UHGV virus genome: UHGV-0088977
DNA: 10,919 nt
Strand: one strand, 5' to 3'
From: a virus
The notes under the pieces are model-generated. The model ran no database searches, was not told the origin of the DNA, and saw only the letters and a program-made list of their open reading frames with translations. Positions 2,979 to 7,972 of this stretch are shown one piece after another; the first letter of the stretch is position 1; each line of letters starts with the position of its first letter. The translations under genes and the position numbers were made by a program.

Positions 2979-3803
2979 TCAGGCGGTGAAAGTACCAATA
3001 AAGGTTTCTACTTTGCTGTCCTTGAATTTCTCAACAAGCAGATCACGAAATTCGTTAGCCATTTCTTCCTGCACTGCTTCCAGCTGAATAATGCGCAGAA
3101 CCAGTACAGGACGATCGCCAGTGATAATGCTGAGGCGTAATTTAAATGGACGTTCTTTCAGGCCTTCAAACGGAACGCATTTAAATTCAAATGCCACTGG
3201 CATAATGTCTTTGGTCTTCGCTTCGACAGACTCCATCAGGGAGCGTTTGCCGCTGAAGTCATTATCTTCAAAATCAGCGGTCTGGTTTGCTTCAATCGTG
3301 ATTTTACGGACAGCCGCAGCCGCTTTTGTTGCCTGAATAGCGTCACCATTAGCATCAAAGCCCACAAGGTAGTCGGCCCAGTCTTCAATCCATTCTGCCA
3401 GTGACTTCTGGGAATTACGCTCGCCATTAACAGACAACAGAGCAGAGAACGGTGCTGTCTTTTTCAGTTTGAGAGTGGCGGTGTTATCGGCGTGACCTGG
3501 TTCATCAATAGTACCCAGGTTAAGAACACTGACGGCACGCATATTATCAGCATCGATAAAGCAGCGGGTGCCTTCATCTGCAAGATCTTTAGAATAACAG
3601 GTAAAGTCATCGATGCTGGCAGTGGAAAGCGCACCACGGAAACGGAAGCGATTTAAATTAAATTTTTCCAGATCATGAATGCGAAAATTCTCAGGTAATG
3701 CCACTGCGTCGGCACCAATCTTACTGATAATTTCATTAACACCCTGAGCAGAAATAAGGGCATGGATTTGATTAATTGCGGTTGCGTCTAAGTTCTGAGA
3801 CAT
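2979..3803 (-). CDS. yfdQ: YfdQ-like protein (DUF2303 family), 274 aa
   Basis: Full-length ORF with a GAGGA Shine-Dalgarno 7 nt upstream of the ATG at 3803; size and sequence match my recollection of E. coli CPS-53 YfdQ; same strand and tight spacing with the yfdP-like and yfdR-like genes. Confidence 0.8.
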
Positions 3804-3868: not shown

Positions 3869-4231
3869 TTAACGACCTGCTGCGCGGAGTTTTCCGTCAG
3901 GTTCACCGGCAAGAGTCAGTAATTGTCCCTGGTCTTCCTGCAGAATAGTCAGGCGACCACCGCGATTGACATACATCGGCGTTTCGGTGGTGTCTTCTTC
4001 GGAAATTTTCCCGCGGTTAGTTGGGCGAACATATGAGAGTTTGTGTTTGATTTTCACACGGTTCTCATCAAACGGTTCGATTTCCAGATTGAGTGAGACC
4101 TTCCCTTTGGTTTTCGTGTTCATCACACCGGAAGCGACTTCACTGAGAACTGCGCCGATTTTGGTTTCAAATACGCCGCCGTCCAGCTCCCCGATAAATG
4201 CCTGCACATCAGTACTGCGTTCGCTAGCCAT
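3869..4231 (-). CDS. yfdP: YfdP-like small protein (about 120 aa; MASERSTDVQAFIGELDGG...)
   Basis: The track ORF runs to 4549, but a strong GAGGAG Shine-Dalgarno sits 8 nt upstream of the ATG at 4231, and the upstream extension crosses the GC-rich island with non-protein-like composition. The resulting 120-aa product matches the yfdP size I recall. Confidence 0.7.
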   Translation of the reverse strand: MASERSTDVQAFIGELDGGVFETKIGAVLSEVASGVMNTKTKGKVSLNLEIEPFDENRVKIKHKLSYVRPTNRGKISEEDTTETPMYVNRGGRLTILQEDQGQLLTLAGEPDGKLRAAGR

Positions 4232-4699
4232 TTTGCTGCTCCTCATCATATCGACCCTGCAAGGCCGATTAGTTTCTCCACAAAACAGAGAAGAACACCT
4301 GCGGTGGCAGCCGCCCGGATGGATTGGGTTATGAGCCCGTCGTCCGGTGATGCTCTTCTCTGTTTTGTAAAAAGGACGGTACCAGCCGGAAGCAAGAGTA
4401 CAAACTGGTACCGCCAAGACTACACACAGCATAAAGTTGTGGTGCCGGGTGCCTCCCGGTGCCTGGCGAAGGTTGCACACCAGGCGGGTGGGTATCCACA
4501 GAAGGTCGACTGTCAGCCTCAACCTTAACCCGCGTGCGCTGAGCCGCATTCACCACAACGCTAAGGATTCTCTCTGGTTGAAAATACTTAGCTGTTATGT
4601 GCCTGCTTTTAGCCACATCAGGCGAGGTGGACCTGGTTATTCCCCAACAACAAGGATTCGGTTAATCTGGTTATCCCCAACAACGCAAAAGGAAAAGAA
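4232..4699. promoter_or_regulatory. GC-rich structured non-coding island between the yfdP-like gene and the divergent 144-aa gene; probable divergent promoter and 5'-UTR region, possible ncRNA
   Basis: No convincing coding frame (the overlapping ORFs translate to P/G/S/R-rich low-complexity peptides); imperfect 17-bp inverted repeat 4281-4297/4351-4367 with a perfect 14-bp core; hairpin CCGGG-TGCCT-CCCGG near 4446-4460; GGTGCC direct repeat; CCTGG...CCAGG stem near 4462-4483. Confidence 0.4.
4633..4684 (+). repeat. Tandem direct repeat CTGGTTAT(T)CCCCAACAAC (copies at 4633-4651 and 4667-4684, 34-bp period), with a degenerate third copy at 4551-4580
   Basis: Seen directly; the second copy ends 15 nt before the ATG of the 144-aa gene and abuts its Shine-Dalgarno (AAAAGGA, 4687-4693). 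Confidence 0.6.
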
Positions 4700-5134
4700 A
4701 TGTCCGGTAATATCTATACGCTGTACAAATCCCACTGTGAAAATGTTGGAAAGTATCGGGGCATTGAAATCAGTGGGGTAGTGTCATCAGTCGAAATAAG
4801 CAAAGTTGAATCAAGGGCAACATTACTTACTCTTCTGGACCTTGTCTTACATGAGCACCGGAAGAAATTCGGCACTCCCTATAATCAGTTGAATGGGAAA
4901 AAAGCTCTGGTTCACCTTATTCTGATGAAGCATCACTGGATGCCAAAACAGATTAATGAGATGAAATTTGATGAACTTCTTCTTTCAATTCAGGATGAAC
5001 TCACGCTTGATAAAATAAGCGTAACCGCCCAGAAATTTTTAGATTATCGAGACTGGAGATCACAAATTCATCACTTTGATGATTTTGACGAAAATGAATG
5101 GGATCCTAATTTGTCTGCACAATATCTAAAGTAA
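4700..5134 (+). CDS. Hypothetical protein, 144 aa, AT-rich orphan (moron-like) gene of unknown function
   Basis: Uninterrupted 144-codon ORF in AT-rich DNA; Shine-Dalgarno AAGGA 6 nt upstream of the ATG; opposite orientation to the flanking leftward operon; plus-strand intrinsic terminator downstream at 5372-5397. No recognisable motif by eye. Confidence 0.7.
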   Translation: MSGNIYTLYKSHCENVGKYRGIEISGVVSSVEISKVESRATLLTLLDLVLHEHRKKFGTPYNQLNGKKALVHLILMKHHWMPKQINEMKFDELLLSIQDELTLDKISVTAQKFLDYRDWRSQIHHFDDFDENEWDPNLSAQYLK

Positions 5135-5312
5135 CATCCTGTGATAAAACCGTGATTTCCTGATCCAGTTTTTTTAAGGAGTCTATTGTTTCCTGTCGAT
5201 AAGACAGCACTTCACGAAGCTGGTTTATAGCTGCCAGCTTCTTTGCCATCCACTCGTAAATTTCCTCATTTGTGTATCCGGGTGCGACGATTTTTGGTTC
5301 TGTTTTGTGCAT
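5106..5312 (-). CDS. Hypothetical small protein, 68 aa (MHKTEPKIVAPGYTNEEIYEWMAKK...), hydrophilic and probably helical
   Basis: GAGGAGG Shine-Dalgarno 6 nt upstream of the ATG at 5312; the track's start at 5327 is a TTG that forms part of this SD; the 3' end overlaps the 3' end of the 144-aa gene by 29 nt in convergent orientation. Confidence 0.55.
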   Translation of the reverse strand: MHKTEPKIVAPGYTNEEIYEWMAKKLAAINQLREVLSYRQETIDSLKKLDQEITVLSQDVTLDIVQTN

Positions 5313-5371
5313 TTCACACCTCCTCAAGTTATCAGTTACTTGTTGATGGGGACCAGATTGTTAAAGAGCTA

Positions 5372-5397
5372 AGCGTCCTGTAGGGCGCTTTTTTGTT
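5372..5397 (+). terminator. Rho-independent terminator (stem AGCGTCC/GGGCGCT, loop TGTA, then a T-tract)
   Basis: 7-bp stem including one G-U pair, followed by TTTTT on the plus strand; the complementary strand would carry a C-A mismatch and a poor U-tract, so it is probably plus-strand specific. Confidence 0.6.
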
Positions 5398-5559
5398 GCT
5401 AACGAATCATCCTGGACTTCATATGCCCCAGGCGGCTACTTCGTGGGCGTCCTGCCTGTTCGTTATCTTTGATATAAAATCTAACTTAACTTAGTTATTA
5501 TGGCAAGAGAAAACACCAAACTTTTCTTAGTTCGGTGCCTTAGTTAGAGAAGAGAGGTC

Positions 5560-6186
5560 TTAGAGTTCGTATTGAACTCCTTTGACTACACCAATGATAA
5601 GGCAATTACCATTGATAGGGATGTTGGGATACCGAGGATTTAATGGCACTAAAAACTTTTGAGGGCCATCGATGACTAATTTTTTTACTGTAGCTTCGTT
5701 TGTTCCATCAAGTCGAGCGATGACTATTTTTCCATGACGAGGTTCTGCATCTGGATCTACAATCACTGTTGCGCCTTCTGGTATTGTTGGGAGGCCATTA
5801 GGGTTAGTCATGGAGTCACCTTTAACCTCTAATGCAAATGAGTTATCACCAATCTTTAATGATGTATCTACCCACTTGTCCACTTCACTAAACACTTCTG
5901 CTGCCCTGCACTCAGTAAACTGCCCAGCCTGAACCCACGATATTACAGGAACTCTGCGCATGTTTGTGACGAGTTTGCCTTCAAACTCAGCACCATAAAG
6001 AATGTAATCTATTGACGTATTGAAGAACTTCGCTAATTTCGAAAGTGCCTCCCCACCAGGGGTATTGATGTCTTTCTCCCAGTACCCCACAGCAACGTCG
6101 CTTACTCCACAAAATTTACCCAATTCTTTCTGGGACGTTCCGGTAACTCTTCTCAGAGCTTTTATACGCTGACCAACCGTTTCCAT
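5560..6186 (-). CDS. CI-like prophage repressor, XRE-type HTH fused to an S24 (LexA-like) autopeptidase domain, 208 aa
   Basis: N-terminal HTH (QKELGKFCGVSDVAVGYWEKD); C-terminal GDSM serine motif and VKKL lysine motif as in LexA/lambda CI; divergent from a Cro-like gene. Resembles e14 CohE by position, not verified. Confidence 0.9.
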   Translation of the reverse strand: METVGQRIKALRRVTGTSQKELGKFCGVSDVAVGYWEKDINTPGGEALSKLAKFFNTSIDYILYGAEFEGKLVTNMRRVPVISWVQAGQFTECRAAEVFSEVDKWVDTSLKIGDNSFALEVKGDSMTNPNGLPTIPEGATVIVDPDAEPRHGKIVIARLDGTNEATVKKLVIDGPQKFLVPLNPRYPNIPINGNCLIIGVVKGVQYEL

Positions 6187-6283
6187 AGGAGCACCATTTC
6201 TTGAATTGCTAAGTAATCTTAGTTTTTATTGACCAAAGATAGATTTGTAATTAGCATCTAATAAAACTTAGTTTGGAGGGCGT
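6187..6283. promoter_or_regulatory. Divergent repressor/cro promoter-operator region (PRM/PR-like)
   Basis: 97-bp AT-rich spacer between the divergent repressor and cro starts; near-palindromic motifs ATCTTAGTT (6216-6224) and AACTTAGTT (6265-6273) and inverted repeat CTAAGTAATCTTAG (6208-6221); candidate -35 TTGACC at 6229-6234; GGAGGG Shine-Dalgarno before the cro ATG. Confidence 0.6.
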
Positions 6284-7417: not shown

Positions 7418-7972
7418 ATGAGCACTAAATTAACCGGCTATGTATGGGATGGTTGCGCTGCATCAGGCATGAAATTATCCAGCGTGGCAATTATGGCCCG
7501 CCTGGCTGATTTCAGTAATGACGAAGGTGTGTGCTGGCCATCAATTGAAACCATTGCCCGTCAGATTGGCGCGGGGATGAGTACCGTCAGGACGGCTATC
7601 GCACGGCTGGAAGCAGAAGGCTGGTTAACGCGTAAGGCGCGTCGCCAGGGTACGGGGGCAGGCTGTATTGCGCGTGCTGACTTTGAAGCCCGACAACGGG
7701 CGGCGCGGACGGATGAAACCACCTATGTGGTGCAGGGCTGGCGACAGGGTAACGGTACGCTGTGGCAGCCCAACCAGCGGGTGATTGTCTTTGATCCGGT
7801 CTGTGGTTTCGACAATACCGAACTGCTTGTTTCGGAAGTCACGTTTACTCAGGACCAGAACGGCACCCTGACGGAAATCCGTGTCGGCCCGCCTGATGCT
7901 TATCTGCCTGAACCCGAAGCCCCCGGCGCGCGGAAAAAGAAAAAAGCCAGAGTACAGGAGGACCCGTTCTGA
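7418..7972 (+). CDS. Apparently chimeric ORF (184 aa): N-terminal HTH/replication-initiator-like domain joined to a C-terminal fragment resembling the end of a Mu gp44-type baseplate hub protein; probable deletion-fusion
   Basis: N-terminus (SSVAIMARLADFSNDEGVCWPSIETIARQIGAGMSTVRTAIARLEAEGWL) looks like a phage O/HTH protein; the composition changes around residue 95, and the C-terminus runs straight into the baseplate V gene with TGATG stop/start coupling. Confidence 0.6.
   Translation: MSTKLTGYVWDGCAASGMKLSSVAIMARLADFSNDEGVCWPSIETIARQIGAGMSTVRTAIARLEAEGWLTRKARRQGTGAGCIARADFEARQRAARTDETTYVVQGWRQGNGTLWQPNQRVIVFDPVCGFDNTELLVSEVTFTQDQNGTLTEIRVGPPDAYLPEPEAPGARKKKKARVQEDPF

Follow-up and report, generated by a model that had tools for sequence, protein, structure and literature searches.

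The viral genome UHGV-0088977, a stretch of 10,919 nucleotides (nt) that we refer to in its whole length as the window, contains on its plus strand a gene for a 144-amino-acid (aa) protein of the ECs1072 family, which overlaps a convergent gene for a 68-aa protein of the YdfC family. Judged by comparison with related prophages, the two genes are a mobile accessory cassette, which occupies a slot for variable cargo in a prophage of the e14/SfV type. By analogy with the Tai/Ati system of phi80 or the SieB/Esc system of P22, the cassette might combine an effector expressed in the lysogen with a modulator expressed from a lytic promoter. We assign this reading, and with it a defence function as a reasonable hypothesis, a probability of about 40%.

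An earlier, sequence-only reading of this DNA had described an ATG-initiated open reading frame (ORF) of 144 aa at 4700..5134, and its position, strand and both termini were borne out. Its suggestion that the gene is an orphan, without a recognisable family and perhaps representing a novel one, was not, since the family has already been catalogued. The protein matches NCBIfam NF033230, 'ECs1072 family phage-associated protein' (157.8 bits against a curated cut-off of 70 bits, residues 4–144 on profile positions 2–142; family type 'hypothetical equivalog'), as well as PHROG 5286, a group of unknown function (302 bits, 1–144 of 144), and RefSeq annotates it under the ECs1072-family name. Its sequence recurs with 100% identity in gp36 of Shigella phage SfIV, a functional phage, and in the products of genes in three E. 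coli phages. At an identity of at least 98% the gene is found in 422 of 5426 complete E. coli genomes, the flanks of the slot being present in about 2900. An exhaustive profile search of 1.84 billion representatives returned only 76 clusters (counted by representatives at 50% identity), all of about 145–155 aa or fragments thereof, and a profile search of genome contigs yielded 3 loci only. Named members come from Escherichia, Salmonella, Yersinia, Pectobacterium, Proteus, Morganella, Pantoea and Erwiniaceae, and further homologues occur in Serratia and in Klebsiella phages.

In a 48-sequence alignment of the family W134 is invariant and L50, R54, L64, G66, A69 and H72 are conserved at ≥90%. 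The 144-aa protein displays the characteristics of the family, namely a single domain of ~145–155 aa with conserved R54, G66, A69, H72 and W134. No transmembrane segment was found in it (maximal 19-residue Kyte-Doolittle value 0.84, grand average of hydropathicity −0.47, isoelectric point 6.4), and AlphaFold2 produced a confident model of an all-helical bundle (pLDDT 85.4, pTM 0.83). The homology and structure searches proposed by the sequence-only reading placed the protein in a family but linked it to nothing else: no Pfam family was recovered at E values up to 0.01, and BFVD contained no fold neighbour of the all-alpha model. Neither cassette protein was matched in Pfam or, by sequence or profile, in the PDB, if coiled-coil noise in the searches with the partner is disregarded. 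In the literature, no study on the function of the ECs1072 family was found.

The 68-aa partner starts from an ATG preceded by a GGAGG Shine-Dalgarno sequence at 5319–5323 and converges on the 144-aa gene, the 3' ends of the two genes overlapping by 29 nt. The protein consists of an N-terminal EP..W motif and a coiled coil. In tblastn searches it was 38–39% identical over 66 aa to the ydfC products of Qin-type phages, including K-12 YdfC, and this similarity, together with the N-terminal EP..(E)..W(M/L) motif in a small protein, identifies it as a member of the YdfC family. The C-termini of the convergent genes overlap on a palindrome, TGGGATCCCA, which encodes W-D-P on both strands in the ST64B, Serratia and Klebsiella phages; the overlap regions are located at ~5098–5108 in the window, ~3650–3715 in locus L004 (ST64B) and ~6362–6435 in L007. 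In the window partner TAG replaces TGG at this place and the protein ends 10–15 residues earlier, the change being synonymous (CCT/CCC) in the 144-aa gene.

In blastn comparisons with E. coli prophages that carry other cargo (L022–L025 and e14), similarity to the window is lost at ~4630–4684 and regained at ~5340–5403. No YdfC-like ORF was detected in any same-flank E. coli prophage without an ECs1072 gene. Since such prophages, with near-identical flanks, keep no YdfC-like ORF, both genes are exchanged together. Every ECs1072-family locus examined, with the exception of L017, has a convergent partner, which usually overlaps the long gene. The overlap amounts to 194 nt in Yersinia and Pectobacterium and to 71–74 nt in Serratia and ST64B, and the genes are adjacent with 0 overlap in Proteus; a convergent partner is also present in Morganella, in a Pantoea P2-like prophage and in Sakai Sp4. 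The partner in ST64B is sb50, with a likely start at MQDGKQQPYFFNP, and that in Klebsiella phage KPP5665-2 is GP45.

The pair has been retained at 16–38% identity of the partner and 20–56% identity of the long gene, across four operon contexts and at least nine genera. In the window and SfIV, as in Yersinia, Pectobacterium, Proteus and Morganella, it occupies the leftward early operon (promoter PL) beside the repressor. Sakai Sp4, where ECs1072 is now numbered ECs_5703, has it in the rightward early operon (PR), between the cII-like gene and replication gene O. The third context is the late operon (PR'), between Q and holin, in ST64B, Serratia and Klebsiella phage KPP5665-2, and the fourth the early operon of P2 type, between cox and gene A, in the Pantoea P2-like prophage. 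In each case checked the small gene reads in the direction of the lytic operon and the ECs1072-family gene against it. Strand counts of the flanking raw six-frame ORFs at the IMG/VR loci were too noisy and were not used.

The slot itself has a content of its own in different prophages. The sequence-only reading had regarded the 144-aa gene as a moron, and the variable cargo at this site, the patchy presence of the gene and the near-identical flanks with other plus-strand genes between them support this view. It had also compared the position to that of sieB, which proved apt: the site lies between the early-left genes and the leftward operator (OL) and cI, and a Yersinia prophage (L008) carries a true SieB there (PF14163, 71 bits), adjoining an ECs1072 homologue and preceded by a second copy of the slot leader. 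Comparison of the slot across related prophages, which the same reading had proposed, revealed variable occupants: genes for 167–171-aa proteins, ymfI/ymfJ and sieB. Three different plus-strand proteins of 167–171 aa are encoded in the same slot behind the same leader (L022 1134–1649, L023 1125–1628 and L025 2332–2844); they have no Pfam or PADLOC match and are candidates for lysogen-expressed accessory or defence genes.

The leader is a non-coding element upstream of the 144-aa gene, made up of GCCTG-N13-16-CAGGC and, after it, a second hairpin; in the window a direct repeat (4634–4652 and 4667–4684) duplicates the 3' part of the element. It precedes the ECs1072 homologues of Yersinia, Pectobacterium, Proteus, Morganella and Serratia, ymfI of e14 and the E. 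coli 167–171-aa cargo, as well as small plus-strand slot genes of Edwardsiella phage EPP-1, Aeromonas phage pAEv1818 and Yersinia phage YeP1. A covariance model (R1), which scores 25.9 bits in the window and up to 88 bits elsewhere, recovers all leader copies, each on the strand of the cargo gene (among them L002 5926–5984, L008 4929–4990 and 5721–5779, and copies in L026–L028). Helix 2 shows compensatory changes in four of its six pairs, with 96% of cells paired, and its covariation score, calculated on an alignment that was fitted to the covariance model, is 0.241, compared with 0.069 for shuffled alignments, of which none out of 500 attains the observed value; slid controls collapse. Helix 1 is invariant and carries no covariation information. 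The leader matches no Rfam family. Helix 1b (CCACC/GGTGG) is a candidate pseudoknot. In Morganella (L020, 4501–5139) a 212-aa gene call (P0091) is over-extended, with the leader inside it at 4614–4674 and the true start downstream, and in P0019, too, the N-terminal extension is leader DNA that has been translated. Because the leader on the left and the plus-strand terminator on the right both lie outside the swapped segment, the slot looks like a fixed expression site for variable plus-strand cargo.

These flanking signals bear on what had been taken as properties of the 144-aa gene itself. Its orientation is indeed opposite to that of the leftward int-xis-yfdR-yfdQ-yfdP genes and of cI, so that it is antisense to the leftward early operon, and a Shine-Dalgarno sequence of its own can be read 6 nt 5' of the ATG. 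The plus-strand terminator is present (5371–5390 followed by TTTTTTG) but belongs to the slot flank and not to the gene: 237 nt, including the entire partner gene, separate it from the stop codon, and it is kept in loci carrying other cargo. As to the AT-richness of the gene, the claim holds against the left flank (GC content 0.38 versus 0.52–0.55 at 4050–4650), but the difference from the right flank and cI is slight (0.40–0.45); a still higher AT content than in the gene is found at the left end of the window (GC content 0.30–0.34). In the leader, an extended −10 element was sought by eye, and no consistent spacing could be fixed.

Evidence on expression comes from homologues. In the transcriptomic study of Owen et al. 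2020 (PMC7067206), the ST64B gene STMMW_20121 was singled out as a candidate accessory or regulatory gene. It extends over 2090066..2090500 (435 nt), just after the holin gene, and overlaps the 360-nt STMMW_20131 by 71 nt; as this geometry matches that of the ST64B homologue (L004 3281..3715), 30% identical to the 144-aa protein, and sb50, it is the ECs1072-family member. STMMW_20121 has its own promoter, is antisense to lytic genes and reaches 60–270 transcripts per million (TPM) in 16 of 17 lysogen conditions, falling to 4.9 TPM in late stationary phase (PMC7067206). For comparison, cI and bstA of BTP1 are found at ~100–290 TPM in the same dataset, lysis genes at 0.2–40 and Q at 2–7 (PMC7067206). 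ECs1072 itself is detectably expressed in a Sakai microarray, with a −2.13-fold change at the growth transition. Lysogen expression is therefore established for the ST64B homologue, which occupies a different slot; what is present in the window is the SieB-type position and the orientation antisense to the putative PL.

The closest characterised parallel is found in phi80, in which TaiEcA and AtiEcA constitute a tail-assembly inhibition defence and its counter-defence, encoded in a 'noncontiguous operon' (He et al. 2024, Nat Commun, PMC11364771). Tai is produced constitutively in the lysogen from a gene lying backwards in the Q operon and is neutralised through binding by the product of a small sense gene next to it; the level of TaiEcA falls on late transcription or when Q is overexpressed (PMC11364771). 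Similarly, in the cassette a gene of opposite orientation interrupts a lytic operon next to a small sense gene, and only some related phages have it; the ST64B homologue shares the constitutive lysogen expression, and the cassettes of ST64B, Serratia and Klebsiella sit in the same Q-controlled operon. On the other hand, Tai is ~200 aa long, compared with 144 aa, the phi80 genes are arranged head-to-head, whereas those of the cassette overlap tail-to-tail, and tail-assembly inhibition and protein binding are features of phi80, the cassette being known here from its genes. Homology was rejected: searches with hidden Markov models (HMMs) and BLASTP against gp52 and gp51 of phi80, which we take to be Tai and Ati by our own assignment, gave nothing better than E 0.05. 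No phi80 record was present among the tblastn matches of either cassette protein.

A second parallel is SieB of P22 and lambda, with Esc and the sas antisense RNA, a system that Ranade and Poteete are said to have described in 1993. There too the gene lies beside the repressor and the PL transcript of the phage is antisense to it; SieB is expressed in the lysogen, and an escape function for the phage itself is built in. In Yersinia, moreover, a true sieB occupies this slot and is preceded by this leader. The 144-aa protein differs in that it gave no match to PF14163 in the Pfam search (E up to 0.01) and is soluble, while SieB, as well as RexB, is a membrane protein. Esc is an internal translation product of sieB, whereas the partner is encoded by a separate gene on the opposite strand.

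BstA/aba of Salmonella BTP1 and TerI/anti-TerI of Listeria phi10403S are prophage-encoded defences located near the repressor or in phage operons, with cognate self-immunity, and resemble in this the arrangement proposed for the cassette. Their proteins are unrelated to those of the cassette, bstA is co-directional with cI, and the self-immunity element of BstA is a DNA site. The transcriptomic signature of BstA is the same as that of STMMW_20121 in the same dataset (PMC7067206).

The likeness to the ymfI/ymfJ pair of e14 noted in the sequence-only reading is real in position and absent in sequence. Both pairs are convergent and overlapping, adjoin the repressor and share the left flank (small RNA-like region and leader) and the right flank of the slot, but no similarity of either protein pair is detectable: homology was rejected on a BLASTP E value of 0.29 over 9 residues for YmfI and no alignment for YmfJ. 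YmfJ-like proteins form a family of their own, found also in Aeromonas and Yersinia phages. The minus-strand genes of the convergent pairs of pAEv1818 (L027 2560–3087) and YeP1 (L028 2573–3063) resemble e14 YmfJ (KHVIALLLEDAKR..EPNAGTEAR), on account of which YmfI/YmfJ-type pairs are a second conserved convergent cassette family of the slot.

With the Qin ydfA-ydfB-ydfC-dicF-dicB operon the window shares a promoter-proximal YdfC homologue in a repressor-controlled operon, followed by a region of DicF/STnc100 type: the STnc100-like region lies downstream of the cassette in the leftward operon, and the order of the ydfC-like gene and the small RNA mirrors that of ydfC and dicF. In contrast to the window, no ECs1072-family gene lies between ydfC and dicF in Qin-type phages.

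With no sequence similarity to the putative phi80 Tai/Ati, to SieB or to YmfI/YmfJ, the relation of the cassette to these systems would be one of working alike and not of membership. In the arrangement that we envisage, the long gene would be transcribed in the lysogen from the conserved leader/promoter of the slot and ended by the slot terminator, and because the transcript would run that far, the 144-aa mRNA would be antisense to the whole small gene. We infer that OL/PL lies between the end of cI and the 68-aa gene; with the operator and promoter placed beyond the end of cI, the partner would be the first gene of PL and the 144-aa gene would lie antisense inside the PL operon. The small gene, first behind a repressor-controlled, PL-like promoter, would thus be made once the phage goes lytic. 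The ECs1072 protein may then act in lysogens as a cytoplasmic effector that interferes with superinfecting phages, and the YdfC-like protein as the cognate neutraliser that makes the phage immune to its own effector; transcription reaching the effector gene convergently from the lytic promoter could also lower its expression, adding control at the RNA level. The promoter assignments, the pairing of the two proteins and any anti-phage activity are what we infer here. In favour of this reading we count the presence of sieB in the same slot, the invariant orientation and the long co-evolution of the pair. A more far-reaching version seems rather unlikely: a new prophage family of defence and counter-defence with no solved fold relative, in which stand-alone YdfC of Qin-type phages would be an anti-ECs1072 protein and the leader a portable, lysogen-specific expression element, serving ECs1072, SieB and YmfI cargo from Aeromonas to Escherichia.

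Several observations weigh against an effector and neutraliser pair. No anti-phage phenotype has been reported for any ECs1072-family member, neither cassette protein matched PADLOC-DB v2.0.0 at E values up to 0.1, and the 144-aa protein has yielded no informative fold. The promoter scan detected no plus-strand sigma-70 promoter for the 144-aa gene. A terminator beyond the partner was considered as a feature of all lineages and rejected, being true for part of them only and not found in others. In ST64B the partner STMMW_20131 reaches 22–258 TPM in lysogens (PMC7067206), where a strictly lytic-only partner therefore fails; constitutive PR' transcripts are a possible source of these reads. YdfC-family genes exist in Qin-type phages without any ECs1072 gene, and L017 has an ECs1072 homologue without a detectable partner. 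Finally, the 89 IMG/VR loci, in all of which the partner is present and convergent (62 of 62 unique cassettes), represent two sub-clades and are non-independent.

Of the other explanations, the one that survives best is a phage-autonomous 'safety catch', in which convergent transcription and antisense RNA issuing from the leader, perhaps with the two proteins, would guard the lysogen against stray transcription that starts at PL, PR, PR' or Pe and reaches the downstream genes for replication, lysis and inhibition of division, until induction overrides this block. All four contexts do place the cassette between promoter-proximal regulators and harmful genes (O, holin, B/A and the DicF-like small RNA), such interference is real in phi80, as the effect of Q on TaiEcA demonstrates, and Owen et al. 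leave 'accessory or regulatory' open (PMC7067206). We nevertheless hold this explanation to be unlikely, because prophages with identical flanks lack the cassette or hold unrelated cargo and the cassette is consequently dispensable for the switch. Furthermore, conservation of two proteins to 20–30% identity across genera is needless for a purely transcriptional effect, and the cassette is found in unrelated circuits, lambdoid and P2-like. Accessory or defence cargo is favoured over a core switch function since the distribution is patchy and swap-prone.

It is quite improbable that the 144-aa gene is a lysogenic-conversion gene directed at the host and not at phages, affecting physiology or virulence, for instance through a host regulator and with the partner serving as co-factor. 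Although the constitutive expression in infection-relevant Salmonella conditions, its decrease in late stationary phase (Salmonella) and at the growth transition (Sakai), and the pathogenic nature of several carriers (Shigella SfIV, O157 Sp4 and ST64B) would all be in line with it, the 144-aa protein has neither a secretion signal nor a membrane segment, the family is carried by many non-pathogenic Enterobacterales and by plant-associated genera (Pantoea, Pectobacterium), and the strict coupling to a partner in the sense of the lytic operon is left unexplained. There is likewise little probability that the two genes have no functional pairing, the YdfC-like one being an ordinary early gene and the 144-aa one an independent moron transferred with it by chance. 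The YdfC members without ECs1072 genes and the solitary long gene of L017 speak for such independence; against it speak the joint exchange of both genes in E. coli and the persistence of the pair in at least nine genera and four unrelated operon contexts, in all of which the genes converge and, with few exceptions, overlap. Least probable of all is an addiction module of toxin-antitoxin type stabilising the prophage, which the conserved pair of small proteins and the overlapping convergent transcripts, reminiscent of antisense-controlled killer systems, might suggest, for the genes are convergent and not a co-directional autoregulated operon of type II, neither a toxin nor an antitoxin domain was matched in Pfam, NCBIfam or PADLOC, the PL context would put the putative antitoxin, the wrong way round, under a repressed lytic promoter, and YdfC stands alone in Qin. 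The effector and neutraliser pair accordingly remains the reading that we prefer, at the probability given at the outset.

Table 1. Features of the cargo slot and its surroundings in the window.
Feature	Position	Strand	Basis
ECs1072-family gene, 144 aa, soluble all-alpha product	4700..5134	+	ORF; NF033230; PHROG 5286; WP_000016389.1
Shine-Dalgarno sequence AAGGA	4689..4693	+	Direct reading of the sequence
YdfC-family partner, 68 aa	5106..5312	-	WP_000549626.1; PHROG 1744, E 6e-34; partner HMM, 94 bits
Swappable two-gene cassette	4685..5352	.	Limits where similarity to other-cargo prophages stops and restarts
Conserved structured leader	4601..4656	+	GCCTG..CAGGC helix and second hairpin; alignments, covariance model
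Intrinsic terminator for plus-strand transcripts, conserved right flank of the slot	5371..5396	+	8-bp stem with 5 GC pairs, T6 tail
Putative OL/PL	5478..5545	-	TTGCCA-17-TAGATT (5506 to 5478) overlapped by CTTAGTT half-sites; promoter scan
CI-type repressor	5560..6186	-	Pfam HTH_3 and Peptidase_S24; RefSeq 'LexA family protein'
STnc100-like (DicF-containing?) small RNA	4366..4589	-	Rfam RF02076, 43.5 bits, E 9e-8, full length

The window is 99.9–100% identical to a segment of the chromosome of E. coli strain ML35. It represents an arm of a defective e14/SfV-type prophage, with intE, xisE, yfdR, yfdQ and yfdP oriented leftward, the CI-type repressor, cro, the cII-like ymfL and a deletion joint (Table 1). 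This prophage copy is defective because the joint at 7418–7972 fuses the early-right operon to baseplate genes (gpV, gp46, J, YmfQ). The plus-strand ORF at the joint is chimeric, its residues 1–80 being similar to the N-terminus of a replication initiator (O-like/HTH_36) and residues 77–182 to the fourth domain of the Mu-type baseplate protein gpP. The heptamer CTTAGTT occurs five times in the window, compared with about one occurrence expected, and all copies are located either at 5490–5545 or in the cI-cro gap (6218–6273). Between cI and cro, at 6209–6222, the heptamer forms a perfect palindrome, CTAAG-N4-CTTAG. In the e14-related prophage NC-SV, the anti-phage small RNA svsR has been placed at the 3' end of cI (PMC12803456), the counterpart region in the window being 5560–5640.

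The score of the STnc100-like region is below the curated gathering threshold of RF02076 (47), and a weak DicF match (4374–4428, 19.9 bits) is nested within it. RefSeq assigns this GC-rich stretch to a 'frameshifted hypothetical protein', and in SfIV it is covered by the N-terminal extension of gp34 and by gp35; these coding-sequence calls are probably spurious. The same sequence is also found upstream of ymfI in K-12 e14, where it overlaps 'ymfH'. At the left end of the window, a minus-strand gene (51–599, GC content 0.30–0.34) adjoins intE at the place where e14 has lit. The ORF exits the window and is complete in L001 (1–2288); the part seen here is the N-terminal portion of a ~780-aa tetratricopeptide-repeat protein (PHROG 24039), the N-terminal domain of which matches the PADLOC candidate defence model PDC-M34B (E 1e-10). 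It is likely a second defence cargo of the element.

The arrangement found here is thus of a known type but is built from non-homologous proteins, the link to YdfC and the conserved leader and slot having emerged as by-products. Should the cassette prove to be a defence and self-immunity system, a widespread family would be added to the immune repertoire of prophages, one present in ~8% of complete E. coli genomes, in Shigella serotype-converting phages, ST64B, O157 Sp4, Klebsiella phages and P2-like prophages, and the uncharacterised YdfC of the classic dicBF operon would gain a role. Independently of what the cassette does, the slot is a cargo site in which the expression signals, a shared terminator and a leader whose hairpin covaries, are fixed and the lysogen-expressed genes loaded into it, sieB among them, differ from phage to phage. 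This offers a genomic rule for recognising further candidates, namely the genes located between the leader and the terminator.

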